A stretch of 64,000 bases of DNA from Patescibacteria group bacterium (GCA_038063615.1 JBBTUT010000003.1:1352-65351); one strand, 5' to 3'. Shown: positions 3,397 through 58,314, counted from the first letter of the stretch. Notes: generated by a model from the sequence alone, not told the origin. Numbers and translations: made by a program.

Positions 3397-3413
3397 AAGA
3401 AGTCTATAAAGTC

Positions 3414-3475
3414 GAAAGTCCGTAAAGTCCATAAAGTAGATGCATTTGTATCCACTTTTGACTTTACGGACTTTT
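3414..3475 (+). terminator. Stem-loop with 15-nt perfect stem aaagtccgtaaagtc/gactttacggacttt
   Basis: Inverted repeat read directly, downstream of the 2368-3396 gene. Confidence 0.4.
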
Positions 3476-3530
3476 AGCTTTTAACTTGCGCGCGTTATGC
3501 GCGCGCGGTATGATATGGAGTATGAACATC

Positions 3531-4778: not shown

Positions 4779-4912
4779 TGAATGGGGAATGGGGAAGGGG
4801 GAATGAATATCGAATATCGAATGTTGAATATCGAATGTTGAATGTTGAATGTTGAATGTTGAATGTTGAATGTTGAATGTTGAATATCGAATGTTGAATG
4901 TTGAATGTTGAA
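4779..4912. repeat. Heptamer tandem repeat array (GAATGTT/GAATATC/GAATGGG units, about 17 copies)
   Basis: Direct reading: gaatggggaatgggg...gaatatcgaatgttgaatgttgaatgtt... Confidence 0.9.
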
Positions 4913-4915
4913 TTA

Positions 4916-4961
4916 GCAAAAACGCCTCCTATGTCCTATAGGACATAGGAGGCGTTTTTGC
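4916..4961. terminator. 46-nt perfect palindrome gcaaaaacgcctcctatgtcctataggacataggaggcgtttttgc
   Basis: Perfect inverted repeat with CTATAG centre, T-rich flank. Likely bidirectional intrinsic terminator. Confidence 0.7.
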
Positions 4962-5032
4962 TTCAAATATCAAATATCAAATAAACATAGATTTATTTCA
5001 GAATTACATTTGGCTATGTTATAATTTTATAC

Positions 5033-6127
5033 ATGGAACAAACACTGGGAGAACAACCAACAGCGGACACTGCTACTGAATTAACAAATTCAGCAACGGG
5101 TCAGACGATTGACAAAGAAGAAGAGAAAGCAGTAGAGAAGCTTCCTCGGACGGCTTTTCTCGCATCGCTCGGCATCGAAAATCGTTCGGCGAAAATCGTG
5201 CTCACAGGCGCGCTCGGAATCGTATTTTTTGCCACGCTCATTTCGTTTCTTTTGATGCCGCCACGCGACTTTCCCAAAGATAAAACGATTACGGTCAGGA
5301 GCGGTGTTTCTCTCGGGCAGGTGTCGCTCCTCCTAAAAGATGAGCACCTTATTCGCTCGCGCACTCTTTTTGAACTCTGCTCAAGGGCTGTCGGCGGGGA
5401 CAAACCGATTCTCGCGGGACAATACTTGTTCAAAGATTCCGCTTACGCATGCACCATCGCAATGCGTATCGCGCGCGGTATTTCGGGTATACCGAGCGTA
5501 CGCGTGACTATTCCCGAGGGAATGTCAAACAAGGAAGTTGCCGTGGTCATTGCGAAACTGCTTCCCGGCTTTGACTCCGCTTTTTTCCTTGAAAACGCGC
5601 GACAAAAAGAGGGGTATCTTTTCCCTGACACTTATTTGCTTTCCACGAGCGTGAATACCGAGAAGATCGTGTCGATAATGAGCGCAAATTTTGAGAAAAA
5701 GATAGAATCATGGATCCCGATCATCGAGTCCTCGGGACGCTCTCTCCGCGATACCATTATTATGGCGTCCATCCTCGAAAAAGAAGCAACTACCGACGAA
5801 GACAAAGAGCTCGTTTCAGGCATCCTTTGGAAGCGCATCAAGATCGGAATGCCACTTCAGGTTGACGCGACATTCATGTATCTTTTTAATAAAAAGTCGA
5901 GTGATATTACGCAAGCGGATCTCCAAATGAAATCAGTGTACAATACCTATCGCAACAAAGGTCTGCCGGGCGGCCCCATCGGCAATCCGGGTATCGCTGC
6001 CATCCGCGCGGCCATCCGCCCAAAAGATTCTCCATACCTCTACTATCTCTCCGACGACAAAGGCGTGATGCACTATGCGAAAACTTTTGCCGAGCATGTG
6101 GTGAATAAGGGGAAGTACTTAAGATAG
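5033..6127 (+). CDS. mltG: Endolytic murein transglycosylase MltG (YceG family)
   Basis: N-terminal TM segment. YceG-like motifs (EGYLFPDTY, GLPxGPIxNPG, YLYYL). TGTTATAAT extended -10 box 7 nt upstream of the ATG. Confidence 0.8.
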   Translation: MEQTLGEQPTADTATELTNSATGQTIDKEEEKAVEKLPRTAFLASLGIENRSAKIVLTGALGIVFFATLISFLLMPPRDFPKDKTITVRSGVSLGQVSLLLKDEHLIRSRTLFELCSRAVGGDKPILAGQYLFKDSAYACTIAMRIARGISGIPSVRVTIPEGMSNKEVAVVIAKLLPGFDSAFFLENARQKEGYLFPDTYLLSTSVNTEKIVSIMSANFEKKIESWIPIIESSGRSLRDTIIMASILEKEATTDEDKELVSGILWKRIKIGMPLQVDATFMYLFNKKSSDITQADLQMKSVYNTYRNKGLPGGPIGNPGIAAIRAAIRPKDSPYLYYLSDDKGVMHYAKTFAEHVVNKGKYLR

Positions 6128-6210
6128 AATATCGAATATGGAATGTTGAATATGGAATGGGTGTGTTAACCCGTATTTATTCAATATTCAATATTCGATA
6201 TTCGATATTC
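6127..6210. repeat. Heptamer repeat hairpin: gaatatcgaatatggaatgttgaatatggaatgg ... tcaatattcaatattcgatattcgatattc
   Basis: Forward and reverse-complement copies of the same GAATATC/GAATGTT units flank a 20-nt spacer between mltG and mnmA. Confidence 0.8.
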
Positions 6211-6215
6211 AGCAC

Positions 6216-7391
6216 ATGAAATTGCAGAAAAAATTAAAAAGATCCGCTAACTCAGCAAAAAAGAACAGTGTGGAAGGCAAGCGTGTCTTTGTCGGGATGT
6301 CGGGCGGGGTGGACTCGTCAGTTGCGGCGGCGCTTCTCAAAAAAGAGGGATATGAAGTGACGGGTGTTTTTATGAAGGTGTGGCAGCCGGATTTTTTGCC
6401 ATGCACTTGGCGCGAGGAACGACTGGATGCGATGCGCGTGGCGGCACAGCTCGGTATTCCGTTTTTGTCGTGGGATTTTGAGCGCGAATACAAGGAGGGA
6501 GTTGCGGACTATATGATTCGAGAATACCGTGCGGGCAGAACGCCGAATCCCGATGTCATGTGCAACAAGGAAGTGAAGTTCGGCGCGTTTTTCCGCAGGG
6601 CGATCGCAGAGGGTGCGGACTTTGTGGCGACGGGGCACTATTCGCGTACGGCGCGAATAGTGCGAGTCAAAAGTGTAAAGTCAAAAGTCAAAAGTCCGAA
6701 TGCAGAATACATGATGTTAAAGGGAGCAGACTCCACGAAAGACCAGTCGTACTTTTTGTGGACACTTGGACAGGAGCAATTGTCGAAGACTTTGTTTCCG
6801 ATCGGTGGGTTCAAAAAGTCACAAGTGCGCGCGCTTGCGAAAAAGTTTGGGCTTCCCGTTGCTGAGAAAAAAGACAGCCAAGGGCTTTGCTTCATGGGGA
6901 AGCTTGATATGAAAGATTTTCTCGCGCATTTTATGGAGGAGAAAGAGGGGAGTGTGGTCAATGAAAAAGGGGAGACTATTGGTACTCATCGCGGAGCATA
7001 TTTTTACACGCTCGGCGAGCGACACGGTTTTACTATCACGCAAAAAGGGACGGATAATGCGCCGTACTATGTCGTGGCGAAAGATCTGAGTACAAACATC
7101 ATTACCGTCGCGCATAAAGTAAAAAACACTCTCGAGTATGCTGTCAAAGAATTACAACTATCGCAAATAAATTTTTGCCGAGGAACCGTGCCTGACCTTG
7201 CCCGCGCATACACCGCGCAAGTACGCTATCACGGCGAACAATATTCTTGCCGTCTTGTTACACTTGGAGGTTCAACCTCCAAGTTGTCTTTCATGTTGCA
7301 ATTCAAAAAACCGGTTATGGCGGATGCCGGTCAATCAGTTGTGATTTATGATGGTATGGAATGTGTTGGTGGTGGGGTGATAGAAAAATAA
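6216..7391 (+). CDS. mnmA: tRNA-specific 2-thiouridylase MnmA
   Basis: PP-loop SGGVDSS. Conserved MnmA Cys residues. Contains an in-frame low-complexity insert VKSVKSKVKSP encoded by GTCAAAA-like heptad repeats (about 6660-6705). Confidence 0.85.
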   Translation: MKLQKKLKRSANSAKKNSVEGKRVFVGMSGGVDSSVAAALLKKEGYEVTGVFMKVWQPDFLPCTWREERLDAMRVAAQLGIPFLSWDFEREYKEGVADYMIREYRAGRTPNPDVMCNKEVKFGAFFRRAIAEGADFVATGHYSRTARIVRVKSVKSKVKSPNAEYMMLKGADSTKDQSYFLWTLGQEQLSKTLFPIGGFKKSQVRALAKKFGLPVAEKKDSQGLCFMGKLDMKDFLAHFMEEKEGSVVNEKGETIGTHRGAYFYTLGERHGFTITQKGTDNAPYYVVAKDLSTNIITVAHKVKNTLEYAVKELQLSQINFCRGTVPDLARAYTAQVRYHGEQYSCRLVTLGGSTSKLSFMLQFKKPVMADAGQSVVIYDGMECVGGGVIEK

Positions 7392-7398
7392 CGAGGGG

Positions 7399-7450
7399 CG
7401 CTTACTGGTATCTATTTCAAGCTATAGCTTGAAATAGATACCAGTAAGCG
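7399..7450. terminator. 52-nt perfect palindrome cgcttactggtatctatttcaagctatagcttgaaatagataccagtaagcg
   Basis: Perfect inverted repeat. Shares a 32-nt core (ATCTATTTCAAGCTATAGCTTGAAATAGAT) with the palindrome at 8980-9025. Confidence 0.7.
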
Positions 7451-8912: not shown

Positions 8913-8979
8913 TGGAGGAAAAGCGCCAGAGGGGGGGATGGGGAATAGTGAAGAGAACAGGGAAGATTTCATAATAAGT

Positions 8980-9025
8980 CCACTAACATCTATTTCAAGC
9001 TATAGCTTGAAATAGATGTTAGTGG
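8980..9025. terminator. 46-nt perfect palindrome ccactaacatctatttcaagctatagcttgaaatagatgttagtgg
   Basis: Perfect inverted repeat. Same 32-nt core as 7399-7450 but different outer stem. Confidence 0.7.
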
Positions 9026-9092
9026 ACTGTGATGGTTGACGGTATATAGTTGTGTTGGCGGAGGAAGGCAATTTGGTATAAGATAGGCGGAT

Positions 9093-10865
9093 ATGGATTC
9101 ACGAGAAATCAGGCGGCGATTCCTTTCATTTTTTGAGAAGCGCGGACATACGGTCATTCCTTCGGCGCCACTGGTGCCGGAGAATGATCCGTCGGTGCTT
9201 TTTAATACTGCGGGGATGCAGCCACTGGTGCCGTATCTCATGGGTGTCCCGCATCCGAGCGGTGCGCGTCTGGTGAATGCGCAAAAATGTGTGCGCACGC
9301 AGGACATCGACGAGGTCGGGGACAAGACGCATGACACTTTTTTTGAAATGCTCGGCAACTGGTCGCTGGGGGACTATTTCAAAGAAGATGCCATCAAATG
9401 GAGTTTTGAATTTTTGACCTCGAAAGAGGAAGGGCTCGGTCTCGACCCTGCGCGTCTCTATGTCACAGTATTCGAGGGCAACGATGATGCGCCGCGCGAT
9501 AATGAAGCGTTCGAGATCTGGAAAAAATATATGCCGGAGAAACGCATCTATTTTATGTCGGCAAAGTCAAACTGGTGGAGTCCGGGAGACAACGGTCCGT
9601 GCGGTCCCGATACGGAAATGTTTTATGATATTACCGAGCATGGACTTGGCGACATGACCAAAGAAGAATATATGGCTGCTGACGACCGACAGGATGTTGT
9701 CGAGATATGGAACGATGTGTTTATGGAGTATGAAAAAAAAGACGGCAAAGTCATCGGCAAGCTCGCAAAGAAAAATGTCGATACGGGCTCCGGTCTTGAG
9801 CGCGTGGCGATGGCGGTGCAGGGGAAAGATAATGTTTTTGATACTGATCTTTTTGAGCCACTGATGCACAGGATCCTTGATCTATCCGGCGGCACAATCA
9901 AAAGTGTTCGCGCGGCGCGTATTGTGGCGGATCATATTCGCACCTCGGTGATGATGATCGCGGACGGTGTGCGTCCCTCAAATACGGATCAGGGGTATAT
10001 TTTGCGCAGGCTTCTTCGTCGTGCGGTGCGTTTTGCGGATATTCTCGGGGTGGGACATGGGATGCTTTCCGAGCTCGTGCCAATCGTTGCCGAGAAATAT
10101 AAAGGTGTGTACGACAATGTCGCGGACATGGATGGCGCGATAGTCAAAGAGATATGGGAAGAAGAGGACAAATTCAGAAAGACGCTTGAGCGCGGGCTAA
10201 AAGAACTCACGCACCTCCTTAAGAAGGGAGCGGTTTCAAGTATCGATGCTTTTACTCTTTTTTCAACATACGGTTTTCCTATCGAGATGACTGAAGAGCT
10301 TGCAAAAGAGGAGGGAATCTCTGTCGACACGGCGGGATTTTATACTGAATTTAAAAAGCACCAAGAGCTCTCCCGTGCCGGCGCAGAGCAAAAGTTTAAA
10401 GGCGGGCTCGCGGATACAAGCGAGTCGTCGGTCAAGTACCATACCGCGACGCACATGCTCAATCAGGCGCTCCGCACGGTGCTCGGCGAGCATATCTCTC
10501 AAAAGGGTTCCAACATCACCGCCGAGAGGCTCCGCTTCGATTTTGCGCACGATGCGAAAATGACCGACGAACAAAAGAAAGCAGTCGAGGACTTGGTCAA
10601 TCAAAAGATCGCCGAAGCATTGCCGGTGACCTATGAGGATATTTCAATAGAAGAAGCAAAAAATCGCGGAGCCATTGGTGTCTTTGGCGAAAAATACGGA
10701 GAGGTGGTGCGCGTGTACCAAGTTGGCGAAGGCGACAAGCGGTTCAGTATCGAAATGTGCGGTGGTCCGCATGTGAAAAATACGAGCGAGCTTGGACATT
10801 TCAAAATTCAAAAAGAGGAGGCGGTCGCACAAGGAATTCGTAGAATTAAAGCGGTGCTGGAATAA
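9093..10865 (+). CDS. alaS: Alanyl-tRNA synthetase, short form lacking the C-terminal C-Ala domain
   Basis: N-terminus matches AlaRS class II core (LVPENDPSVLFNTAGM, FFEMLGNWSLGDYFK). HxxxH editing-domain motif (HTATHMLNQAL) near the C-terminus. 590 aa. Confidence 0.85.
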   Translation: MDSREIRRRFLSFFEKRGHTVIPSAPLVPENDPSVLFNTAGMQPLVPYLMGVPHPSGARLVNAQKCVRTQDIDEVGDKTHDTFFEMLGNWSLGDYFKEDAIKWSFEFLTSKEEGLGLDPARLYVTVFEGNDDAPRDNEAFEIWKKYMPEKRIYFMSAKSNWWSPGDNGPCGPDTEMFYDITEHGLGDMTKEEYMAADDRQDVVEIWNDVFMEYEKKDGKVIGKLAKKNVDTGSGLERVAMAVQGKDNVFDTDLFEPLMHRILDLSGGTIKSVRAARIVADHIRTSVMMIADGVRPSNTDQGYILRRLLRRAVRFADILGVGHGMLSELVPIVAEKYKGVYDNVADMDGAIVKEIWEEEDKFRKTLERGLKELTHLLKKGAVSSIDAFTLFSTYGFPIEMTEELAKEEGISVDTAGFYTEFKKHQELSRAGAEQKFKGGLADTSESSVKYHTATHMLNQALRTVLGEHISQKGSNITAERLRFDFAHDAKMTDEQKKAVEDLVNQKIAEALPVTYEDISIEEAKNRGAIGVFGEKYGEVVRVYQVGEGDKRFSIEMCGGPHVKNTSELGHFKIQKEEAVAQGIRRIKAVLE

Positions 10866-14316: not shown

Positions 14317-14412
14317 TTTAACAAACAACAAACAACTGACAACTAACAACAAGCACGGGGGAGAAGGCATTGATTGTAGAGAGTAAGTCGTGAGTTGTAA
14401 GTCAAAAACACC

Positions 14413-15585: not shown

Positions 15586-16554
15586 ATGCTCGACTACAAC
15601 ATCACATTGCCATCGAAACCGAAAGTTCTCGCAGAGGACGGTTTTAAAGGGAGTTACGAGATTGAAGGCCTTTACCCGGGGTACGGACATACGCTTGGCA
15701 ATTCCCTCCGCCGCATCATCCTTTCTTCGCTTTTCGGCGCGGCTATTACGACGGTGAAGATTGACGGCGTATCGCACGAGTTCTCAACGCTCGAGGGCGT
15801 GAAAGAGGATGTCATCACCATTCTTCTCAATTTGAAAAAAGCGCGATTCAAGCTTTCGACGATGGAGCCACAGACGGTGACGCTTTCGGTCAAAGGGGCA
15901 AAAAATGTGACCGCCGGCGACATCAAAGTTTCCGGTCAGGTGGAAGTTTTGAATCCTGAACAGCACATCGCAACCTTGACCGACAAGAGCGCGTCGCTCA
16001 ATATCGAGATTGTGGTGGCAAAAGGCTTCGGATATGTTCCAAAGGAGGTGCATCAGAAGGAAAAGGTGGACATCGGCACTATCGCCGTGGATGCAATCTT
16101 TACGCCTATTCGCCGTGTAAACTACGAAGTGGACAACATGCGCGTAGGTGATCGTACCGACTACAATCGTTTGAGCATCAGCATCGAGACCGACGGGACT
16201 ATTTCTCCGCGCACCGCGCTCGAGGCATCGATTGAGATCATGATAAACCAGCTCAAGGCGATTATCGGTTTCGTCGAAAAAGAGGAAGTCGAGAAAAAGG
16301 AAGCTGCGACAAAAGCGGATGAGAAGCCGGCAAAGAAAGAAACGGCAGACAATGATTTCTTGAAGACGCGCGTAGAGAGTCTCGACCTTTCCGCTCGCAC
16401 GACGAACGCGCTTTCAAACGCAAACATCCGCACGATCGGCGGGCTTGCACGCAAGACCGAAGAGGACCTTTTGGAGATCGACGGTTTGGGCGACAAGGGC
16501 ATTCAGGAGATCAAGCGCGCACTCGGAGCACACGACATCACGCTCAAGGCATAA
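15586..16554 (+). CDS. rpoA: DNA-directed RNA polymerase subunit alpha
   Basis: GYGHTLGNSLRRILLSSL N-terminal domain motif. C-terminal alphaCTD (ARTTNALSNANIRTIGGL). Confidence 0.9.
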   Translation: MLDYNITLPSKPKVLAEDGFKGSYEIEGLYPGYGHTLGNSLRRIILSSLFGAAITTVKIDGVSHEFSTLEGVKEDVITILLNLKKARFKLSTMEPQTVTLSVKGAKNVTAGDIKVSGQVEVLNPEQHIATLTDKSASLNIEIVVAKGFGYVPKEVHQKEKVDIGTIAVDAIFTPIRRVNYEVDNMRVGDRTDYNRLSISIETDGTISPRTALEASIEIMINQLKAIIGFVEKEEVEKKEAATKADEKPAKKETADNDFLKTRVESLDLSARTTNALSNANIRTIGGLARKTEEDLLEIDGLGDKGIQEIKRALGAHDITLKA

Positions 16555-16591
16555 ACTATTGACTATTTACTACTAACTATCAACTGCTACC

Positions 16592-16954
16592 ATGAAACAT
16601 CACAAGTCGATTCGAAAATTTGGACGAGACCACGCAGGACGCATTGCGCTCCTCCGCTCCCTCGCGCTTGCGCTCATTACGCGCGAGCACATTCAGACGA
16701 CCGAGGCGCGCGCCAAGGAACTCCGTCCATTCATCGAAAAGCTCGTGACTCATGGTCGCGTAGCCGACCTCGCATCTCGCCGTCTTATCATTTCTCGCTT
16801 GGGCGGTGTGGATGGCGAGAGCGGTGCGAAAAAGATCATCGAAGAGATCGCGCCTCGCTACAAAGAGCGTGCGGGCGGGTACACTCGTGTTTTGAAACTC
16901 CCTCGTCGTCAAGGGGATGCAAGCAAAATGGCAATTATTGAATTTGTGAATTAA
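16592..16954 (+). CDS. rplQ: 50S ribosomal protein L17
   Basis: MKHHKSIRKFGRDHAGRIALLRSLALALITREHIQTTEARAKELRP. Confidence 0.9.
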   Translation: MKHHKSIRKFGRDHAGRIALLRSLALALITREHIQTTEARAKELRPFIEKLVTHGRVADLASRRLIISRLGGVDGESGAKKIIEEIAPRYKERAGGYTRVLKLPRRQGDASKMAIIEFVN

Positions 16955-16956
16955 CA

Positions 16957-17004
16957 GACAACAGACAACAGACAACAGACAACAGACAACAGACAACAGA
17001 TACG
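16957..17004. repeat. (CAGACAA)x7 tandem heptamer followed by GTCGTAAGTCGTAAGTTGTAGGTTGTAAG (about 17020-17050)
   Basis: Direct reading. The two blocks are roughly complementary. Confidence 0.85.
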
Positions 17005-17065
17005 GGTACGAAAGCAGAGCATCCGTCGTAAGTCGTAAGTTGTAGGTTGTAAGTTAAACTAAACC

Positions 17066-21344: not shown

Positions 21345-21390
21345 TATGACGAGTAGTCTTTTTGCAAAGGTAGAATATGAATTTTTGTCA

Positions 21391-21412
21391 TACTGGGTCA
21401 GGTACCCTTTCC
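21391..21412. repeat. REP-like element tactgggtcaggtaccctttcc
   Basis: Same GGTCAGGTACCCTTTCC core as the hairpins flanking the IS200-like transposase at 35024-35098. Confidence 0.6.
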
Positions 21413-21470
21413 TAAAATTGAATCCAAAAACTAAAATTAAAAATTTTGATGAGGCGGGGGCTGTGGTAGA

Positions 21471-24248: not shown

Positions 24249-24290
24249 TAGGTGTCAGGAGATACTGGGTCAGAGACCTTTGACTCAAAA
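24249..24290. repeat. Composite REP-like element ataggtgtcaggagatactgggtcagagacctttgactcaaaac
   Basis: Contains both the aggtgtcagg (as at 22191) and gatactgggtcag (as at 21391) variants. Confidence 0.55.
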
Positions 24291-25427: not shown

Positions 25428-27332
25428 ATGGCAAAAATTTTAGGCATTGACTTGGGTACAACGAATTCAGCGGTCGCTATCATCGAAGGTGGTGAACCGC
25501 GCATCGTAGAAAATATAGAAGGCGCGCGCACGACGCCGTCCATTGTCGCTGTTTCAAAGAGCGGCGAGCGTTTGGTGGGACTTCTTGCAAAACGGCAAGC
25601 GGTGACCAATCCGCAGAATACGCTTTTTGGCATCAAGCGCATGATCGGGCATACATTTGAAGACGAGGGTGTCCAGCGCGATAAAAAGACCGCGCCGTTT
25701 GCCATTGACCGCTCGACGACCGGCGGGGTGATGGTGAAGATGGGCGACCGACAGTATCGTCCGGAAGAAATTTCCGCAATGGTCCTCCAGAAGCTCAAGG
25801 CGGACGCGGAGGCGAAGCTCGGCGAGAAGATCACCGAGGCGGTCATCACCGTGCCTGCATATTTCAACGACTCACAGCGCCAAGCGACCAAAGACGCGGG
25901 GCAGATTGCGGGCTTCGATGTAAAGCGCATCATCAACGAGCCTACGGCGGCTGCTCTCGCATATGGTTTTAATAAAAAGAAAGATGAGAAGATCGTCGTC
26001 TATGATTTCGGCGGAGGCACCTTTGATGTGTCGGTGCTTGAAGTGGGTGGTGATGTTATCGAAGTGAAATCGACCGATGGTGATGTACATATGGGAGGCG
26101 AGGATATCGACCAGAAGATCATCAAGCACATTGCGAGCGAATTCAAAAAGGAATCAGGCATCGATGTGTCGACCGATGTGATGGCGCTTCAGCGCTTGAA
26201 GGAGGCGGCGGAAAAGGCAAAGCACGAGCTTTCGACGACGACAGAATCGGAGATAAACATCCCATTCATCACTTCCGGCGCAGAGGGTCCAAAGCATCTC
26301 CTTATGAAGCTTTCTCGCGCAACTCTCGATGACCTCGCACGCGAATACATCGACAAATCGATCGAGATCACCAAGCGCGCCATCGCGGCGTCGCCGTTCA
26401 AAAAAGAAGACATCAACGAAATCATTATGGTCGGCGGACAGACCCGTATGCCCGCTATCGTGAATGCGGTGAAGGAGCTTTTCGGCAAGGAGCCAAATCG
26501 CTCGATCAACCCCGATGAAGTGGTGGCGATCGGCGCGGCTATTCAGGCGGGAATTTTGCAGGGTGATGTGAAAGATGTGCTCTTACTCGATGTCATCCCA
26601 CTCTCGCTCGGCATTGAAACATTTGGCAATGTCGCGACGAAGCTCATCGAAAAGAATACGACGATTCCCGCATCGCGCTCGCAGGTGTTCTCGACAGCGG
26701 CGGATAATCAAACATCAGTCGAAATCCATGTTGTGCAGGGTGAGCGCCCAATGGCACCGGACAACAAGTCTCTCGGCAGATTTATTTTGGACGGCATTCC
26801 GCCGGCACACCGCGGTATGCCGCAAGTGGAAGTCTCTTTCGATGTGGACGCAAACGGCATCTTGCAGGTAAAGGCAAAGGAAAAGACGACCGGCAAAGAG
26901 CAATCGATACGCATCGAGGCAAGCTCGGGCCTTTCAAAAGATGATATCGCGCGCATGCAAAAAGAGGCGGAGATGAACGCAGAGGAGGATGCGAAAAAAC
27001 GCGATACAGCGGAAACTAAAAATGTACTTGAGCAGATGGTGTACACTGCTGAAAAAGCGCTCCGCGACAATGGCGACAAAGTTTCTGCGGAGATCAAAAC
27101 AGCAGTGGAAGAAAAGCTTGCGAATGCAAAGACGGCAAGCACGGGCACCGATATTGACGCGATGAAGAAAGCATCCACGGAGCTTTCAGAAGAGCTTTCA
27201 AAAATCGGTGAAGCGATGATGAAGAGTGCTGAGGGCGCGAAACCGGAAGGCGCCGGTGAAAATCCCGAAGGAGGCGACGGGAAAGTGCATGATGCGGAGT
27301 ACCGCGACGGGGAGGACAAGAAAGACAATTAA
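25428..27332 (+). CDS. dnaK: Chaperone DnaK (Hsp70)
   Basis: [31 protein letters not shown] Hsp70 signatures. Confidence 0.95.
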
Positions 27333-27410
27333 CATGTGACAATTGACATGTGACAAGGGCGAACCAGTATTTCGTCAATGGTCAAAAGTCAGTTGTCAAA
27401 TGTTCCCAGT

Positions 27411-31053: not shown

Positions 31054-31086
31054 TGAAGTTTCTTATTTTTCTGTGTTGGTAATTTT

Positions 31087-31132
31087 CCAAATCCGCCAGC
31101 TTGGACCTATAGGTCCAAGCTGGCGGATTTGG
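31087..31132. terminator. 46-nt perfect palindrome ccaaatccgccagcttggacctataggtccaagctggcggatttgg
   Basis: Perfect inverted repeat with CTATAG centre. Confidence 0.7.
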
Positions 31133-31191
31133 AATTTCGATTTTGCTACGCTATATCGTGATACGAGAGACTGTGATATAATGCTCAAAAT

Positions 31192-32997: not shown

Positions 32998-33039
32998 TTG
33001 GGAGGGGAAACAAACAACTGACAACTAACAATCGACAAT

Positions 33040-34817: not shown

Positions 34818-35023
34818 GTCTGCCTCCTTTTTAAGAACTATGAATTTTATTCTTCCCTAAAACTACTCTTAAATCACCAAAAAGTCAAAAGTTGCGGGTT
34901 CTGCTATAATGCGGTTTGTATGTCTGACCAAAACAAAACAGAGGCAAATTCACTCGATCAAAAAGAACAGATGAAAAAAGGTTTGCGCGCGGTATGGCGC
35001 CATGTGCGACCGTTTAAAAAAGG

Positions 35024-35798
35024 GGGAAAGGGGGTCAGGTACCCTTTCCCTTTACTTCTGGGGAAAGGGGGTCAGGTACCCTTTCCCTTTACTTCTGATA
35101 TACTAACCATATGCCTCGCATCACTCGTACCGACATCGGCAATCATTGCTATCATGTCATAAACCGTGCCAACGCGCGTATGCCGATTTTCTTCGCAGAA
35201 AAGGACTATGTTTTGTTTGAGCAAGTCCTAGAGGAAGCGCAAGAAAAGTTCTCTATGAGAATCCTCGCATACTGCCTCATGCCAAACCATTTTCACCTTG
35301 TGTTGTATCCAAAAAATGATGGTGACATGGGAAAATTCATGCAATGGCTCACGCTCACCCATACCCAGCGCTGGCATCAGGCGAACAATACGAAAGGAAG
35401 TGGGCATCTCTACCAAGGAAGGTACAAATCTTTTTTGATACAGGGCGACAACCATCTTCTCTCTGTTATTCGTTATGTCGAGCGAAACTCGCTTCGCGCA
35501 AAACTTGTTAGAAAAGCAGAGAACTGGGGTTTTTGTAGTTTAGCACGACGACTATCAATCAACACAAGAAAAAAGAAACTCTTGTCAGCATGGCCGATAC
35601 CGGAGCCAAGAGATTATCTCTCATTTGTTAGCACCCCGCAAACAAAAGAAGAGGAAGAAAGCATCAGAGGATCTGTCGTAAGAGGGAAGCCGTTTGGTGC
35701 AGATGCATGGGCTACAAAAATGATCGAGAAGTTTGGACTTGAAGCTACCGTGCGCTCGACAGGGAGACCCAAAAAGGGTACCTGACCCCCTTTTTCTC
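35024..35798 (+). mobile_element. IS200/IS605-like (RAYT-like) element: two tandem 38-nt left hairpins, a Y1 transposase gene, and an inverted right hairpin
   Basis: Left: gggaaagggggtcaggtaccctttccctttacttctg twice (35024-35098). Right: aaaaagggtacctgaccccctttttctc (35771-35798), inverted. Transposase stop TGA lies inside the right hairpin. Confidence 0.7.
35111..35785 (+). CDS. IS200-like / REP-associated tyrosine transposase (Y1 HUH)
   Basis: HUH motif in CLMPNHFHLVLYP. Transposase_17-like N-terminus (YHVINRANARMPIF). Confidence 0.7.
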   Translation: MPRITRTDIGNHCYHVINRANARMPIFFAEKDYVLFEQVLEEAQEKFSMRILAYCLMPNHFHLVLYPKNDGDMGKFMQWLTLTHTQRWHQANNTKGSGHLYQGRYKSFLIQGDNHLLSVIRYVERNSLRAKLVRKAENWGFCSLARRLSINTRKKKLLSAWPIPEPRDYLSFVSTPQTKEEEESIRGSVVRGKPFGADAWATKMIEKFGLEATVRSTGRPKKGT

Positions 35799-37583: not shown

Positions 37584-37724
37584 AATTAAGGTCAATTGTA
37601 CCAAAACCCATAACTAGCATAAAAGATTTTTGTTCTTGTTGCTGGCATGGTATGATTGAATGGAAGAAAATGAGGTTGAGAGGGTTTTTGATTCTATCGC
37701 ATTAGGTATTTAAAAATATCATGA

Positions 37725-38993: not shown

Positions 38994-38999
38994 AAGATA

Positions 39000-39050
39000 G
39001 CCGTGTTTTTTTGTTTTCTTTTTTTGTGCGGGGCGTGGTATGATTGGGGG
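39000..39050. repeat. 51-nt module gccgtgtttttttgttttctttttttgtgcggggcgtggtatgattggggg, duplicated exactly at 50127-50178
   Basis: Terminator tail plus GGCGTGGTATGAT extended -10 box. Identical copy upstream of the 50202 gene. Confidence 0.8.
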
Positions 39051-43275: not shown

Positions 43276-43414
43276 GCATGGATTTTAGTATGCCGATGTA
43301 TTCAATGCAAAATTTCTTTCATTTTTCGCATCGGGCGTGGTATAATTGAAATGTAAAAGTTCGTACAAATACTGATTCGAGCGTTGGGTATGAGAAAAAT
43401 AGTTTGTTTTTAAA

Positions 43415-50099: not shown

Positions 50100-50140
50100 T
50101 CTTTGTTTCCTTGCACGGCTATTGATTTTAAAATCAATAG
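50100..50140 (+). terminator. Hairpin acggctattgatttt-aaaatcaatagccgt plus U-tract, followed by the duplicated 51-nt module
   Basis: Perfect stem after lysS. Confidence 0.7.
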
Positions 50141-50201
50141 CCGTGTTTTTTTGTTTTCTTTTTTTGTGCGGGGCGTGGTATGATTGGGGGAACGGAACGA
50201 T

Positions 50202-51276: not shown

Positions 51277-53061
51277 ATGATACTTAACCTTGATATCAAA
51301 AATACATTAATATTGATTATCGCGGTAATCAATATTACATACGGCGCAATCATTTATTTAAAAGATAAAAAGAGCGCTACCAGTAGCTGGTTTTTCCTTT
51401 TGGCCGTCTCGGTGGGATTATGGGGAGTAAGTATGTTTTTATTTCGATCTGCTCAAGAAGAGTATTTGGCCAGTATTTTTTCAAGAATTTTGTATTTCTC
51501 AGCAGCGGTTATCCCCATCGTGTTTATTTATTTTTCAGCTGTCTTCCCAAGTGTTTCATCTGTATTTGGTTTTCGACAAAAATATATTCTGCCAATCCCA
51601 TTTTTTATAATAGCTTTATTCTCCTTAACTCCTGATTATCTGGTAAAGAGTACGCAGATTCTAGTAGGTGAAGAAACACACATTTTATTTAATAATTTTT
51701 ATCATACACTTTATGTTTTTTACATAAATATTTTTTTCGCATACGGATATTTTTTATTGGTTAAAAAATATTTTGTAAGCAGATTTCAAGATGTTGTTTT
51801 AAGTAAGCAAATTATTTATATTATCGCAGGAACATTTATTTCGACAATGATTGGTGTTTTTACAAACCTGCTTGGACCATATATGGGTATATTTAAGTTT
51901 AATTGGGTTGGTCAAATTGGAAATGTCGTTATGATTTCAGCTATCTCATATGCAATAGCTAAACATCAGTTGTTTAACATCAAACTCATCCTCGTTGAAT
52001 TGGCGATTTTGTTGCTTAATATGTTTCTTTTGTTCAATGTGTTTACTTCGCATGCGACGGTGGACTTTGTGCTCAATATCTCGGTGTCATTGTTTGTCTT
52101 TATCTTCAGCATCATCCTTATGCGCGGTATTTACAAGGATATTCGGGACAGAGAGCGGATCGAGGGATTGGCGAAAGAGATGGCGGTGACGAACGAGAAG
52201 CTCCATATACTGGAACAACAAAAGACGGAGTTTGTGTCCATCGCTTCGCACCAGCTCCGCACTCCGCTGACAGTCATCAAGGGCTATGCGTCGATGATCC
52301 TCGAGGGGACTTTTGGCACCATTGCCACTCCGGTGCACGATGCTATGGACAAGCTGTACAAGTCGAGCGAGAGGATCGTGGCACTGGTGGAGGACCTGCT
52401 GACGGTGTCGCGACTGGAGCAGGGGAGAGGCGCGCTTCATTTTGAGACGGTGGACCTCGTGAGAGTCATTCAAATGGTGACGATGGAAATGGATGAAGAT
52501 ATCAAGAGGTCAAATCTCGACTTCTCGTTTACGGTGGAAGAGGGGGGAGAATTCCCCGTCGCAATCGACGAGAAAAAGTTCAAGCAAGTGGTGAAGCACA
52601 TCCTCGACAATGCCATCGAGTACACAAACGCCCCCGGCAGAGTGCGTATCGCTATCAATGAAGACAACATCGCCGACAAAATCCGTCTCACGGTTTCTGA
52701 TACCGGGGTGGGGATGACCGCGGAGCAGATCCAGAGTATTTTTGAGAGGTTTAATTTGAAGATTAAAGAGCAGACGACAAACGACGGACAACAGACGACG
52801 GGGGAAGGGGAAAGGAAAAAGGAAGGAAAGTTTTTATGGCCGAGCCACGAATCAGCTGATTCGAAGTTGAAAGTGGAAAGTGGAATACAAGAATCAAAAT
52901 CAGAAGAACCAGAGACAGAGGCGCCAAACCAGCGCACGCCCGGTATCGGGCTCTACATTGCGCAGGAAATTATCGAAGCCCACCACGGCACCCTGCACAT
53001 CGAGTCCGCCGGCATGAACGAAGGCACGACGGTGATCGTGGAGTTGCCGAGGGCTAAATAA
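51277..53061 (+). CDS. Membrane sensor histidine kinase (multi-TM sensor, HisKA, HATPase_c with low-complexity insertion)
   Basis: H-box SIASHQLRTPLTVIKGY. G1 DTGVGM and G2 GIGLYIA are separated by an about 45-aa Gly/Glu/Lys-rich insert. Confidence 0.8.
   Translation: MILNLDIKNTLILIIAVINITYGAIIYLKDKKSATSSWFFLLAVSVGLWGVSMFLFRSAQEEYLASIFSRILYFSAAVIPIVFIYFSAVFPSVSSVFGFRQKYILPIPFFIIALFSLTPDYLVKSTQILVGEETHILFNNFYHTLYVFYINIFFAYGYFLLVKKYFVSRFQDVVLSKQIIYIIAGTFISTMIGVFTNLLGPYMGIFKFNWVGQIGNVVMISAISYAIAKHQLFNIKLILVELAILLLNMFLLFNVFTSHATVDFVLNISVSLFVFIFSIILMRGIYKDIRDRERIEGLAKEMAVTNEKLHILEQQKTEFVSIASHQLRTPLTVIKGYASMILEGTFGTIATPVHDAMDKLYKSSERIVALVEDLLTVSRLEQGRGALHFETVDLVRVIQMVTMEMDEDIKRSNLDFSFTVEEGGEFPVAIDEKKFKQVVKHILDNAIEYTNAPGRVRIAINEDNIADKIRLTVSDTGVGMTAEQIQSIFERFNLKIKEQTTNDGQQTTGEGERKKEGKFLWPSHESADSKLKVESGIQESKSEEPETEAPNQRTPGIGLYIAQEIIEAHHGTLHIESAGMNEGTTVIVELPRAK
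52801..52885. repeat. 85-nt element (ggggaagggg...aagtttttatggccgagc...aatcagctgattcgaagt.gaaagt) inserted in-frame in the kinase ATP-lid; second copy at 56216-56300
   Basis: Shared 19-nt and 24-nt blocks between the two loci, read directly. Confidence 0.7.
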
Positions 53062-53242
53062 TTTTGTGGATATGTTTTTTGCAAAATTATCGCCCGAACA
53101 TTTGTAAACAAATGTTTTAGAGGGAGGGGCAGTTAAATAGCCAATAGTGAATAGTCAATAATATTACGCGGCGACCCCTCTGTTTTTGTGTTTGGTGTGG
53201 TAGAATGATATGGAGGAAAAAGATTCTAGTATATATTGGTAT

Positions 53243-53764
53243 ACAAACATGTCTCAAGAAAAAAATTTAGCGTTTATTGACGGACAAAACTTACACCTAG
53301 GAACCACGCAAAATGGGTGGAAAGTTGATCATAATAAATTGAGAGTGTATTTGAAAGATAAGTATCATGTAACGGAAGCATATTATTTTTTGGGGTATGT
53401 CTCAGAAGAAGAACAAGACCTCTACAATAATCTGCAAAAAGCAGGATTCATTGTTTTGTTCAAGGAACACAACTCAAATCTGAAAGCAAAAAAGAAAGGG
53501 AATGTTGATACCGATATTGTGTTTGAAATAATGAAACACCTTGTTGACAATAAAGATTTTGACAAGTTTCTTTTGGTTTCTGGTGATGGTGATTATAAAA
53601 AGGTGGTTGATTATTTGATAAAGAAAAACAAATTTAGAAAGATCCTTTTCTCAAATAAAAAATTCGCTTCTTCTTTGTTTAAAAGCCTAGGATCTGAATT
53701 CTTCGATTACATGGAAAACTTCAAAACATACATAGAGTGGTCTAAAAAAGAAAAGGGCTCCTAA
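53243..53764 (+). CDS. NYN/LabA-like domain protein
   Basis: KNLAFIDGQNLHLGT, GNVDTDIV, LVSGDGDY motifs. An upstream in-frame ATG at 53210 follows a GGTAGAAT box. The stop lies inside the conserved terminator-like element. Confidence 0.7.
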   Translation, partial: TNMSQEKNLAFIDGQNLHLGTTQNGWKVDHNKLRVYLKDKYHVTEAYYFLGYVSEEEQDLYNNLQKAGFIVLFKEHNSNLKAKKKGNVDTDIVFEIMKHLVDNKDFDKFLLVSGDGDYKKVVDYLIKKNKFRKILFSNKKFASSLFKSLGSEFFDYMENFKTYIEWSKKEKGS

Positions 53765-53815
53765 GGCACTAACACCTTTCGGATCCCTTTTCGTCTGGAT
53801 ACACAGCCATTATAT
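53749..53815. repeat. Second copy of the terminator-like element (aaaagggctcctaagg...cggatcccttttcgtctggatacac)
   Basis: See 24618-24680. Confidence 0.65.
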
Positions 53816-53861
53816 AGTATCTGTAGTCGAAAAGTCAAGCGTTTTGTGTTATATTACTTTT

Positions 53862-54206
53862 ATGATTATTAAGATCGTTGAAGATACTATCAGTGTAGAC
53901 GAGCTACGGGAAATAGCTACGGAATACTATATCGATATGGTAAAGGGCGTGGTGGATATTTCAAAGGGGACAGTTGCTTTCGGTGGAGAATACCATATGG
54001 ACGCGAATGTGAAGATCTTGGAAAATGGGTCTGTTCAGCGTGATGTGTGGGGATTTAATATCTTTTTTGACCGACCGCAAGAGGAACGAATTGAGTTTAC
54101 TTCGCTTATCAATATCCGACCGCAAGCGGGGAATAGATCGATGGAAGTGGAAGATGAGATGACCCGCAAGAAAATGCGTGATATTATTGACCGCAAAATT
54201 ACTTGA
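53862..54206 (+). CDS. Hypothetical protein
   Basis: ORF only. Start chosen at MIIKIVED. Confidence 0.3.
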   Translation: MIIKIVEDTISVDELREIATEYYIDMVKGVVDISKGTVAFGGEYHMDANVKILENGSVQRDVWGFNIFFDRPQEERIEFTSLINIRPQAGNRSMEVEDEMTRKKMRDIIDRKIT

Positions 54207-54210
54207 TACC

Positions 54211-54504
54211 ATGGAACGAACTCCTCTTTTTTATTTGGCAAATCTTGGCAGTGAAGTGAATAGGATTTTTGTATTGAAGGAGAAAGGGCTATTGAAGGAA
54301 GCGGGGGAAGCGCATACTCGGGCAAATGGCATTATAGAAAAACTTTTGAGTCATCCAGAGCTCGAAGGCAGGACGGAGGAGGTCAGAATGTTGAAGGATT
54401 ATTTGGAGCAGTCTCTGGGGAGCGAGCGAACCGAATTTTTGAAGAAGGAATGGCAGGGGTATTTTTCTCCGTATGCGAATAGGTTGTTTTCTGTGAGCTC
54501 GTAG
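54211..54504 (+). CDS. Hypothetical helical protein
   Basis: ORF only. Start chosen at MERTPLFY. Confidence 0.3.
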   Translation: MERTPLFYLANLGSEVNRIFVLKEKGLLKEAGEAHTRANGIIEKLLSHPELEGRTEEVRMLKDYLEQSLGSERTEFLKKEWQGYFSPYANRLFSVSS

Positions 54505-54556
54505 GGTTGTGGATATTTGAGTAAAATTTTTTGCCGGGGCGTGGTATACTTTTCGT

Positions 54557-56215
54557 ATGTCCGTTACGGTACTTGCAATTGTGCAAAATATTTCGATTGA
54601 GGGATGGGGTGTCTCGGCTGCGGGACTGCTCGCGGTATTTTTTTCGAGCATTGTCTTTTGGCAGGATCCTGCGAAGCGCAGTAACAGAACTTTTTTATTT
54701 TTTGGGGCGGCTGTCAGCGTGTGGGGCATTGCGTTCGCGGTCTTCACGGGGACATACGGCACTCCCGCTATCCATGGCGCGCTGTCGATGATTTATCTTG
54801 TCGCGCCACTCGTGCCTCTCTCGCTATTCCTTTTTTTGTATGATTTTTCAATAAAAGGAAGCCCATTTTCATTTTGGAAATTTGCTGGAATTTTCACTCC
54901 TTATTTGTGTCTTGCGGGATTGCTTTCTATTCCCAATTTCATCACCGGTTACGACGAAACGCTGGATGGTGGCTTGGGGGGCAGGGTTTTTGGAAAAGGA
55001 TACCCGATCTATAGCTTCTACATGCTCGCATTCCTTTCTGCGGGGGTCATTGTCCTCATTAAAAAATATCGCGAGAGTGCGGGGATATTCAAATTTGCAA
55101 TCAGAAATATTCTGCTTGCGTTTTTCGCGATGAGCGTTCTTGCTACCACGGTGATGCTCCTTTTTCCTCTTTTTTGGGTAGGGTACGACTTGTTTTGGGT
55201 CGGGCTCCTCGGCGTAATCATCTTTGAGTTTGTCATCGCACTCATCCTTATCAAATATAATTTTTTGAGCTTGAAGGTCATTGCGACCGAGTTTTTCATT
55301 TCAATCATTGCTCTGGTTTTGGTTGTGGAGCTTTTCCTCGCGACTTCGACGCTCGACTTGCTCATCAAGGCGGGTATCGCGATGCTCATTATTTTTTCAA
55401 GTTCATTTCTCGTCGGAAGCATCAAGCGCGAGATCCAGTCCAGCGACAAAATCGCGCGCCTCTTGGGCGACCTCGACTATATGCACAAACAGCTCAAGGT
55501 GCTCGACAAGAAAAAGTCTGATTTCCTCTCTATCGCTTCACACCACTTGCGCGATCCGCTGACCGCTATCAGGGGGTATGCCTCGATGCTCACCGAGGGT
55601 TCCTTTGGTGAGCTCTCGGTATCCTTGAGAGAAGCTGTTGAAAAAATCCTCGATTCGAGCGAACGCCTCATCACGATGATCTCTGATTTTATGGATATTT
55701 CGCGCATCGAGAGCGGGGATATGAATTATAAGTTTGTTGATGTCGATATGAAGAAGCTGGTGCTCGACCTTGCTGATGAAATGAAGTTCAACGCCGAGCG
55801 CGCACATCTTGGGTTTAATGTTGCGGTAGGCAAGGACTTGTTGAAAGATGAATCGTTCGTGACGGTGGGAGATGCGGGCAAGTTGCGTCAAGTGGTTTCA
55901 AATATCATTGATAACTCGATCAAATACACTCCGCAGGGTGAACTGTCGCTCCTGCTTTCCAAGAGTCCGGACCGAAAGAAAATACTTTTCAGTGTCTCGG
56001 ATACGGGTATCGGCATGAATGCAAGCACGCTCGAAAAGATTTTCAGAAAATTCAGCCGTGCCGATGGGGTAAGCAAAGTCTATACCGAGGGCACCGGTCT
56101 GGGTCTCTATGTGGCAAAGGAGATCATCAAAAAACACGAAGGGCGCATCTGGGCGGAGTCCAAAGGCGAGGGTATGGGTTCGAGTTTCTATATGGAGTTG
56201 GAGGCGAAGGTGTAG
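54557..56215 (+). CDS. Membrane sensor histidine kinase (second copy)
   Basis: H-box SIASHHLRDPLTAIRGY. N, G1 (DTGIGM) and G2 (GTGLGLYVA) boxes. GGCGTGGTATACT box directly upstream; likely leaderless. Confidence 0.8.
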   Translation: MSVTVLAIVQNISIEGWGVSAAGLLAVFFSSIVFWQDPAKRSNRTFLFFGAAVSVWGIAFAVFTGTYGTPAIHGALSMIYLVAPLVPLSLFLFLYDFSIKGSPFSFWKFAGIFTPYLCLAGLLSIPNFITGYDETLDGGLGGRVFGKGYPIYSFYMLAFLSAGVIVLIKKYRESAGIFKFAIRNILLAFFAMSVLATTVMLLFPLFWVGYDLFWVGLLGVIIFEFVIALILIKYNFLSLKVIATEFFISIIALVLVVELFLATSTLDLLIKAGIAMLIIFSSSFLVGSIKREIQSSDKIARLLGDLDYMHKQLKVLDKKKSDFLSIASHHLRDPLTAIRGYASMLTEGSFGELSVSLREAVEKILDSSERLITMISDFMDISRIESGDMNYKFVDVDMKKLVLDLADEMKFNAERAHLGFNVAVGKDLLKDESFVTVGDAGKLRQVVSNIIDNSIKYTPQGELSLLLSKSPDRKKILFSVSDTGIGMNASTLEKIFRKFSRADGVSKVYTEGTGLGLYVAKEIIKKHEGRIWAESKGEGMGSSFYMELEAKV

Positions 56216-56300
56216 GGAGGGGTAAAAAAGTTTTTATGGCCGAGCTTGCGCCCAAGGCGTGAACCTGCTGATTCAGAATCAGCTGATTCGAAGTGGAAAG
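56216..56300. repeat. Copy of the 85-nt element immediately after the kinase stop codon
   Basis: See 52801-52885. Confidence 0.7.
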
Positions 56301-56340
56301 TATGGTGTAGGAGCCGGCAAGAAGGAGATACAAAAAAACA

Positions 56341-56360
56341 CGGAGAACTTTTGTTCTCCG
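56341..56360. terminator. Hairpin cggagaac-tttt-gttctccg
   Basis: Perfect 8-nt stem. Confidence 0.5.
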
Positions 56361-56396
56361 TGAGAATGATCTAGTTTCCGCGAAATTCAGACATGG

Positions 56397-56573
56397 TTAC
56401 CGTCCGGCTAATTTTTTTCGGAATTCCTCGCGCCCATGGAGCAATCCTTTCATGTATTCTTCATTGTCTTTTTCCTGTGCCTTACCTTTTGGTATAGGGT
56501 AAGGTGGTTTAGACGGCAACCCATTACTACCATCGTTGAAACCTTTTCCCCTAGGACTCTTTTTTTGGTTCAT
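56397..56573 (-). CDS. Hypothetical small protein (58 aa) with strong Shine-Dalgarno
   Basis: Minus-strand ATG preceded by AAGGAGGAGAAAA. Translates MNQKKSPRGKGFNDGSNGLPSKPPYPIPKGKAQEKDNEEYMKGLLHGREEFRKKLAGR. Confidence 0.3.
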   Translation of the reverse strand: MNQKKSPRGKGFNDGSNGLPSKPPYPIPKGKAQEKDNEEYMKGLLHGREEFRKKLAGR

Positions 56574-58263: not shown

Positions 58264-58314
58264 TAGAATGTTGAATATCGAATATCGAATATTGAATATG
58301 GAATGGGGAATGGG
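58264..58314. repeat. Heptamer repeat block gaatgttgaatatcgaatatcgaatattgaatatggaatggggaatggg
   Basis: Same unit family as 4779-4912 and 6127-6210. Confidence 0.85.

Follow-up and report, generated by a model that had tools for sequence, protein, structure and literature searches.

The analysed window of 64,000 nt belongs to a Hainich groundwater contig from a Yonathbacteria-like lineage of the Parcubacteria. It codes for two histidine kinases, kinase 1 (HK1) and kinase 2 (HK2), and carries a two-hairpin element of about 32 nt within the reading frame of HK1 and related sequence behind HK2. The element is probably a member of a very small dispersed hairpin family in Parcubacteria, of which one main-type copy has entered the ATP lid of HK1, and the sequence on the HK2 side is then a separate composite. 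Coordinates are those of the window, and L-numbers (L001–L034) denote related loci used for comparison. Element sequences are quoted on the window minus strand unless stated. The kinases, the lid and the translated copy are located as follows:

51277–53061, plus strand: HK1, histidine kinase of 594 amino acids, host gene of the translated element (open reading frame (ORF); Pfam HisKA_7TM, HisKA and a split HATPase_c)
54557–56215, plus strand: HK2, paralogous histidine kinase of 552 amino acids with a normal short ATP lid (ORF; Pfam)
52762–52935, plus strand: ATP-lid linker of HK1, residues 496–553, predicted to be disordered, hypervariable in length and sequence among orthologues (pLDDT, homologue lids)
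52832–52863, minus strand: main-type 32-nt two-hairpin element CGAATCAGCTGATTCG-TGGCTCGGCCA-TAAAA (covariance-model match of 55.1 bits), absent from this position in L002–L004 and L006

The recurring unit comprises about 32 nt, with a family range of about 28–46 nt, and consists of two adjacent hairpins and a short A-rich tail (minus strand: CGAATCAGCTGATTCG-TGGCTCGGCCA-TAAAC). The stem of hairpin 1 measures 6 bp and contains the core GAATCAGCTGATTC. Hairpin 2 combines a 4-bp stem with a 3-nt loop; main-type copies read TGGC-TCG-GCCA here, and variant-type copies CGYC-TTG-GRCG. Both hairpins are predicted as RNA and as DNA. The hairpins covary: 99% of the cells are paired, three of the four pairs of hairpin 2 change on both sides, and none of 500 shuffles reached the observed score. 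The sequence-only reading had proposed a repeat of 85 nt. No colinear repeat of this length exists: the two blocks shared by both sites are separated by 3 nt in HK1 and by 30 nt behind HK2. When about 160–170 nt surrounding each copy are aligned (two sequences, 191 columns), the columns average only 69% identity.

Strict search patterns, which fix 22–23 of the approximately 32 positions, were run in one scan over GTDB genomes and one scan over metagenomes. The sole GTDB genome with any match was a Minisyncoccia metagenome-assembled genome (MAG) carrying the core twice, in the spacer between its HK1 and HK2 and 3′ of a NYN gene. Both copies match the HK1 copy of the window in 35/35 nt, and the kinases of this MAG are only 45–56% identical. 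The element forms the centre of a unit of about 190 nt there (L012 ~870–1060 and L016 ~3355–3545; two copies, one between HK1 and HK2). Imperfect terminal inverted repeats, about 43 nt long, bound this larger unit, and the ends resemble outward-facing extended −10 promoters, GGGGATGGTATAA. The metagenome scan yielded 16 loci, 14 of them with different flanks; L031 and L032 repeat the DnaG locus of L028. Later, nhmmer and a covariance model added 10 further copies of the variant type among the related loci examined. The hosts are Parcubacteria, namely Yonathbacteria and related Minisyncoccia.

The copies are located in spacers after stop codons, near tRNA genes, within heptanucleotide arrays and in open reading frames. 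Several lie 20–210 nt from tRNA genes or just 3′ of stop codons. At L021 6241, the palindrome occurs alone and caps a terminator-like hairpin 3′ of a tRNA-Ser gene. L019 and L029 are seemingly orthologous loci with diverged flanks and an unchanged element. A literature search found the palindrome core GAATCAGCTGATTC in no paper, and viral contigs had no match to the element. Rfam gave no match around the HK1 site at E values up to 5, and none at the gathering threshold in the 16 loci.

The two kinases are paralogous, as the sequence-only reading had assumed: they have an identical domain set (7TM sensor, HisKA, HATPase_c), and their cytoplasmic parts share 34% identity. The HATPase_c match of HK1 is broken in two at the lid. 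In an AlphaFold model of HK1, built from 60 orthologues, the 58 residues 496–553 have pLDDT values below 50, compared with about 90 on either side, and the residues encoded by the element lie in the middle of this segment. H325, N445, D475, G477, G479, G556 and G558 are invariant in the 60 orthologues. These two observations agree with the earlier view of the ATP lid as a permissive site. All closest HK1 homologues (about the top 40 matches listed, 38–100% identical) have a long, charged and hypervariable linker between IFERFNLK and PGIGLY; the more distant homologues of the same list have a short lid. Since the long linker is common to the closest homologues, is modelled with low confidence and is framed by invariant catalytic residues, the expanded linker is ancestral to the HK1 orthologue group and disordered, and the kinase looks intact, its H, N, G1, F and G2 boxes being preserved despite the insert. 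HK2 lacks such an expansion. About 100 of its 120 listed homologues are near full length (526–564 amino acids) and the rest are fragments of 307–497 amino acids; none approaches the 594 amino acids of HK1.

The copy inside HK1 is translated as KFLWPSHESADSK, with the G1/F boxes (SDTGVGM, IFERF) on its N-terminal side and the G2 box (PGIGLY) on its C-terminal side, at the place where the earlier reading had put it. Plus-strand nucleotides 52831–52863 encode FLWPSHESADS, 11 codons in the middle of the 58-residue linker. In L002–L004, the orthologous DNA is GGAGGAGGAAG|AAGTTGAAAGTGGAAAGT; both the GAAAGTG heptamers and the purine-rich sequence on the left are there, and the 33 nt TTTTTATGGCCGAGCCACGAATCAGCTGATTCG are missing. 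The L006 orthologue likewise lacks the 33 nt. Two heptamer arrays of the lid lie outside this core:

52771–52801, plus strand: AACAGAC-type heptamer array, translated EQTTNDGQQTT (TRF rows 52771–52797 and 52773–52801)
52864–52885, plus strand: GAAAGTG-type heptamer array adjoining the element, part of the ancestral lid and outside the insertion (TRF period 7, 3.1 copies)

The first array is a member of repeat family D3, which also includes intergenic arrays at 1730, 14320, 16953 and 33009, and L006 has AACAGAC AACAAGC AACGAAC AACAAAC at its position. At the position of the second, L002 has GAAGTTGAAAGTGGAAAGTTGAAAGTGGAAAGT without the element. On this comparison, only about 33 nt of the HK1 lid is insertion. 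The Gly/Glu/Lys-rich loop had been described as inserted as a whole; this applies to the 33-nt core and not to the flanks, which are heptamer-rich and purine-rich lid with counterparts in orthologues lacking the element. The insert had also been expected to be specific to the lineage. An orthologue alignment bears this out for the core, which is missing from the orthologues with 89% and 83% identity, and contradicts it for the ancestral long linker. The orthologues compare with the window as follows (identity of the core domain):

L005 and L027: 99–100%, element present
L006: 89%, element absent
L002: 83%, element absent
L009: 79%, element present with one extra A, read VYGRATKSADS

The HK1 copy is most likely a tolerated, near-neutral passenger, given that all catalytic motifs are intact.

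The same kinase locus also varies on a larger scale. The 3′ 1.1 kb of HK1 (95–98% nucleotide identity) and the start of HK2 are common to the window and to the co-occurring close relatives L005 and L027. Their 7TM sensor half is unrelated to window positions 51277–51930, and they lack the NYN-DUF5674-orf97 block between the kinases (window 53062–54520). These differences point to a sensor-domain swap and a 1.45-kb indel.

The sequence after HK2 is more complex than a second copy. In the window, the exact 18-mer AAGTTTTTATGGCCGAGC has just two occurrences (52828 and 56228), as has the exact 19-mer GAATCAGCTGATTCGAAGT (52849 and 56276); 0.04 matches are expected by chance for each. The two shared blocks of the earlier reading are thus real, and the idea that both sites hold the same element fails at the composite HK2 side. 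The covariance model recognised three units only in the window: the main-type unit at 52832–52863, the variant-type unit at 56244–56275 and the palindrome at 56276–56289. The parts of the composite and the neighbouring hairpin are:

56228–56245, minus strand: main-type tail and half of hairpin 2, AAGTTTTTATGGCCGAGC on the plus strand (exact 18-mer); together with 56244–56275 the ‘long form’
56244–56275, minus strand: complete variant-type (‘B’) element TGAATCAGCAGGTTCA-CGCCTTGGGCG-CAAGC (covariance-model match of 27.5 bits, E = 3e-7)
56276–56290, no strand assigned: extra hairpin-1 palindrome alone, GAATCAGCTGATTCG (exact match, covariance model)
56339–56362, minus strand: intrinsic-terminator-like hairpin of a convergent small gene (56397–56573, minus strand; gene call in L001) (terminator scan)

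The predicted fold of 56244–56275 retains both hairpins on the minus strand. A homologous long form, CGAATCAGTAGGTTCA-CGCCTTGGGCA-CAAGCTCGGACATAGAC, is found at L007 1012. Heptamer-like AAGTGGAAAGT (56291–56301) follows directly after the extra palindrome. The terminator-like hairpin of the convergent gene places the composite in a convergent intergenic spacer. On these matches, the HK2-side sequence is a separate composite in which a main-type tail, one full variant element and an additional palindrome are combined. The second copy had been placed 1 nt after the stop codon. The HK2 stop TAG is at 56213–56215 and the conserved element starts 13 nt beyond it; what begins 1 nt past the stop is a generic GGGAGGGG box, which also occurs 3′ of other stop codons in the window. 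GGAAAGT units are generic in the window as well, and the remaining resemblance over ‘85 nt’ is G-rich and GAAAGT-heptamer sequence generic in this genome. Close HK2 orthologues have different downstream spacers, with AATAGTC heptamers in L007 (97% identical) and GAAAGT heptamers in L009.

Family members are in frame in at least eight different genes. Main-type copies are translated in HK1, an IleRS-phosphatase fusion, the linker of DnaG and the N-terminus of transketolase, and variant-type copies in the N-terminal tail of RpoD, DprA, a HolB-like protein and the C-terminus of PolA. This occurrence of the core in unrelated Parcubacteria genes upholds the earlier proposal of a small dispersed repeat taken into coding sequence at a permissive site of the ATP lid. 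HK1 is no rare, isolated case, as had been thought: hairpin elements and heptamer arrays are repeatedly translated in linkers of housekeeping proteins in this lineage. The contig with the HolB-like gene is from the same sample as the HK1 contig and has nearly the same coverage (46x and 45x); it therefore probably belongs to the same genome as the window.

Two genes provide filled and empty sites beside HK1. The element is present in one of 61 IleRS orthologues, where it adds exactly 11 residues; the other 60 lack it. Transketolase has filled and empty alleles within one 90%-identity cluster, with a clean DNA difference of 28–30 nt. The left 70 nt of the two alleles are identical, the right approximately 60 nt contain one mismatch beside the junction, and any duplication is at most 2 nt. 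Such pairs of sites suggest that the element is mobile.

Neither the frame nor the orientation in which this DNA is translated is constant. Main-type copies give LWPSHESADS (HK1, IleRS), YGRATKSADS (L009, with the extra A) and NQLIHGSAIN (DnaG, transketolase); variant-type copies give ESADSGLGPS (DprA) and DSAESRLGRG (HolB). The peptide is therefore not the conserved feature, and selection does not act on it. An adaptation to coding through open frames was considered and rejected, as four of the six frames of the 33-nt unit are open and about 3.5 are expected by chance. At the IleRS site of the L023 element, L034 (IleRS, P0289; ~9130–9180) has a different, 51-nt insert that contains a hairpin and lies between AAAATCA heptamers. 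Small insertions may be concentrated in coding stretches of heptamer-like sequence.

Mechanistically, copies of the dispersed family would be gained and lost site by site on short evolutionary time scales. In ORFs, they would persist where the frame stays open and the protein tolerates them. The main-type copy would have entered a heptamer-rich part of an already long, disordered HK1 lid. Spread may occur by a hairpin-dependent cut-or-copy process that duplicates no target sequence; single-stranded DNA or a templated patch could be involved. Neither a fixed target-site duplication nor a common target sequence was found in 24 copies and in the filled/empty pair of transketolase. Flanking direct repeats of at least 7 nt are present in only 6/24 copies, mostly those inside tandem arrays, and the location in tandem arrays accounts for the excess. 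Copies are enriched in heptamer arrays: about 5–6 of the 24 lie in such arrays, which make up about 1% of the sequence. At L024 8021–8065 and L033 3047–3091, the element is joined directly to a copy of positions −2 to +11 of tRNA-Lys (12/13 and 13/13 positions); the tRNA-Lys genes start 43 and 68 nt away, and controls never exceeded 10/13. A long-range duplication of the 5′ flank as a general trait was rejected, since it occurs only at these two tRNA-Lys loci. A strand asymmetry of wobble pairs, a hint of RNA or single-stranded DNA, was also dismissed: a hand count gave about 5 T·G and 3 C·A, which is not significant.

Several observations weigh against a mobile dispersed family. The main copies are near-identical in part because the strict patterns select for it, and the covariation comes from a small sample of only about 11 distinct sequences. 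The apparent copy number is low, with 3 units per 64 kb and 2 strict copies in the GTDB genome, unlike classical REP and small dispersed repeat (SDR) families. The presence of the element in the HK1 lid is out of step with core-domain similarity; this pattern needs two insertions, repeated clean loss or recombination of the lid. The lid halves are mosaic between alleles, and allele recombination rather than fresh insertion could have carried the element into the lid. No mobilising gene for the element was identified, and the covariance model found no two-hairpin element at the RAYT-like gene of the window, whose flanking repeat is different. The element may also have a host function, for example as a protein-binding site or RNA signal.

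This last point leads to the view that the element is mainly a selected cis-acting signal of the host that does not move, its genic copies being accidental or regulatory. It could be a dimeric-protein site on the 16-bp palindrome or a signal for RNA processing, stability or termination at gene ends and tRNA genes. We consider this rather unlikely. The covariation of the hairpins fits such a signal, as do the positions near tRNA genes or just after stops, the lone palindrome at the tip of the hairpin after tRNA-Ser, the constancy of the element between the diverged flanks of L019 and L029 and the few copies per genome. Yet copies are found facing either way with respect to genes and also within the linkers of essential proteins (HK1, IleRS, DnaG, DprA, HolB, RpoD, transketolase), and transketolase alleles with near-identical flanks differ by clean presence and absence. 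The hairpins are not followed by a T-run and match no Rfam family. A signal and mobility are compatible and not mutually exclusive. A local event, in which about 85 nt were copied between the 3′ flank of HK2 and the HK1 lid by ectopic recombination or gene conversion aided by heptamer arrays, is very unlikely. The order of modules is indeed alike at both sites (G-rich box, element, GGAAAGT), both share the left block AAGTTTTTATGGCCGAGC down to its run of five T, and GAAAGT-type arrays are present in the HK1 lid and after HK2 in L009. However, the ends AAAAAGTTTTTATGG...GATTCGAAGTT of the HK1 and HK2 copies recur in the IleRS gene of another organism (L023) and are thus traits of a subfamily. 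The HK2 side is a composite with a full variant element, the HK1 copy is the canonical short form of a different genus in 35/35 nt, and the downstream spacer of the 97%-identical HK2 orthologue in L007 differs.

That no insertion took place, and that the whole segment including KFLWPSHESADS is an ancestral linker resembling the repeat by chance, is highly improbable. The long charged linker of all closest HK1 homologues (about the top 40 listed) and the heptamer flanks shared with orthologues without the core speak for it. The absence of the 33-nt core in the two nearest outgroups, L006 and L002, its reading in another frame in L009 and its presence in unrelated genes and spacers largely refute it for the core; for the rest of the linker it holds. 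An assembly artefact or adapter-like contaminant is barely credible. A short, near-identical sequence in many unrelated contexts would raise this suspicion, as all data are metagenome assemblies. The copies, however, stem from independent projects and assemblers (Hainich ENA data, JGI metagenomes, Logan assemblies and a Danish MAG), every one is on a Parcubacteria-like contig, and the reading frames are kept open. Diverged variants show compensatory changes, and no paper with the sequence was found in the literature search. The dispersed hairpin family, with one main-type copy in the HK1 lid, remains the preferred reading.

A broader proposal, which we regard as quite unlikely, is that hairpin elements and heptamer arrays are products of one undescribed templated or hairpin-guided insertion process that prefers heptamer arrays and leaves no target duplication. 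If it were true, short new peptide segments would be written continually into the linkers of essential proteins, and the tRNA-Lys start copied at two loci would be the footprint of a copy-type mechanism. The mobility of the cyanobacterial SDRs, a long-standing problem, might then be explained as well. Phyletic profiling could find the responsible enzyme, because the genomes have only about 1 Mb.

Other repeats are frequent in the window. It has 17 arrays of period 7, most of them directly behind stop codons; shuffles give about 1.5 TRF rows. Listed heptamer arrays are:

4780–4913, 4963–4983, 6127–6211, 14320–14352 and 16554–16585
16953–17054, 27324–27356, 33009–33038, 53136–53160 and 58266–58314

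Their sequence families are TGAATGT, AACAGAC, AATAGTC and GAAAGTC. The arrays are often paired as inverted arms, forming long imperfect hairpins. Besides those in the HK1 lid, two are translated: 1717–1760 in LeuRS (13–2238), KNKLQQTTDNEQQENQ, between the catalytic and anticodon-binding domains, and 6665–6696 in MnmA (6216–7391), RVKSVKSKVKSP. Their repeat types are the same as in the spacers and the HK1 lid.

One gene of the window resembles a transposase:

35111–35785: RAYT-like Y1 transposase (Y1_Tnp) gene, the only transposase-like gene in the window

A gene beside the L002 orthologue of HK1 is 91% identical to it. It is preceded by a tandem pair of 37-nt hairpin units (GGGGAAAGGGGGTCAGGTACCCTTTCCCTTTACTTCT; GGGGAAAGGGGGTCAGGTACCCTTTCC...; GGGTCAGGTACCC type; region 35023–35785 with the gene), and related hairpins are found at 21390–21417 and 24262–24289. 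The 37-nt units suggest a second, separate family of small repeats. An exact 54-nt duplicate at 38997–39050 and 50137–50190 consists of a T-rich terminator tail and a GGGGCGTGGTATGAT promoter-like box; related boxes are located at 37627, at 43317 and just upstream of HK2 (54540). Perfect palindromes of 48–52 nt are present in spacers at 4915–4962, 7399–7450, 8977–9028 and 31085–31134, two of which share a 30-nt centre.

A sensor kinase, a transketolase and an aminoacyl-tRNA synthetase each exist in filled and empty form, which offers a view at single-nucleotide resolution of a repeat of about 30 nt becoming protein. These alleles explain odd low-complexity insertions in proteins of the candidate phyla radiation and call for caution: such inserts should not be taken as functional motifs. 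The element is usable as a strain-level marker. The mechanism of mobility is more tractable in Patescibacteria because there are few candidate genes.

Several known systems differ from the element in a defining trait: REP/RAYT, miniature elements of the MITE type, CRISPR and a tRNA origin. REP and REPIN sequences are short imperfect palindromes, extragenic, in hundreds of copies and with a flanking RAYT gene (PMC3116915). The element shares the short imperfect hairpin palindrome and the frequent position just after stops, and a RAYT-like Y1 gene is in the window. In contrast, its copies are few and often intragenic, and the RAYT-like gene is flanked by the GGGTCAGGTACCC-type repeat; a cognate repeat of this transposase was therefore rejected. 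MITEs such as Correia and ERIC are also small non-autonomous dispersed repeats, and the larger MAG unit (about 190 nt), bounded by imperfect inverted repeats, is reminiscent of them; the 32-nt unit, however, has internal hairpins, no terminal inverted repeats and no target-site duplication. A CRISPR repeat was dismissed, with a single match per genome or metagenome locus and no array in the window. A tRNA origin was suggested by the resemblance of TGGCCGAGC to a type II D-arm and of GCTGA-TTCAGAA-TCAGC to a Leu-CAG anticodon arm. It was rejected: ARAGORN (window) and Rfam were negative, and alignment to nine tRNAs from related loci gave nothing above a 15-nt chance match.

The element most resembles the cyanobacterial SDRs and the Rickettsia palindromic elements (RPEs); the heptamer flanks resemble the STRRs, reportedly heptanucleotide tandem repeats of heterocystous cyanobacteria. 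STRRs and the flanks, which form the ‘Gly/Glu/Lys’ and ‘QTT’ parts of the HK1 lid, have in common tandem heptamers of several families, mostly in spacers; some arrays described here differ in being translated (HK1, LeuRS, MnmA). We know of no report of STRRs in Patescibacteria. RPEs are said to lie in frame in protein genes of Rickettsia, including essential ones. They are 100–150 nt long, add 30–50 residues and are confined to Rickettsia. The likeness is that of a palindromic repeat translated in frame at tolerant surface or linker regions. The element differs in its 28–46 nt, its 10–11 residues and its common occurrence in spacers, and no resemblance to an RPE or another described family was found in Rfam or in the literature search for the palindrome core.

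SDR4–6, small dispersed repeats of Nostocaceae, are reportedly 21–27 nt long. The families SDR1–8 are set apart from the element by description and host only. SDR5 inserts precisely into the HIP1 octamer (PMC4390886), and no SDR-like repeat was found outside Nostocaceae (PMC5861425). The element comes from an unrelated phylum, its sequence is presumably unrelated as well, its copy number is seemingly much lower, and no fixed target was found for it. The likeness is otherwise extensive. Both are very small, near-identical dispersed units with hairpin potential (21–27 nt for the SDRs, about 32 nt here), with filled and empty orthologous sites that include genes, with nested and composite copies, with co-occurring heptanucleotide arrays and with no known mobilising enzyme. 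The combination of very small repeats and heptamer arrays, so far described from Nostocaceae only, is thus extended to the reduced genomes of Patescibacteria.

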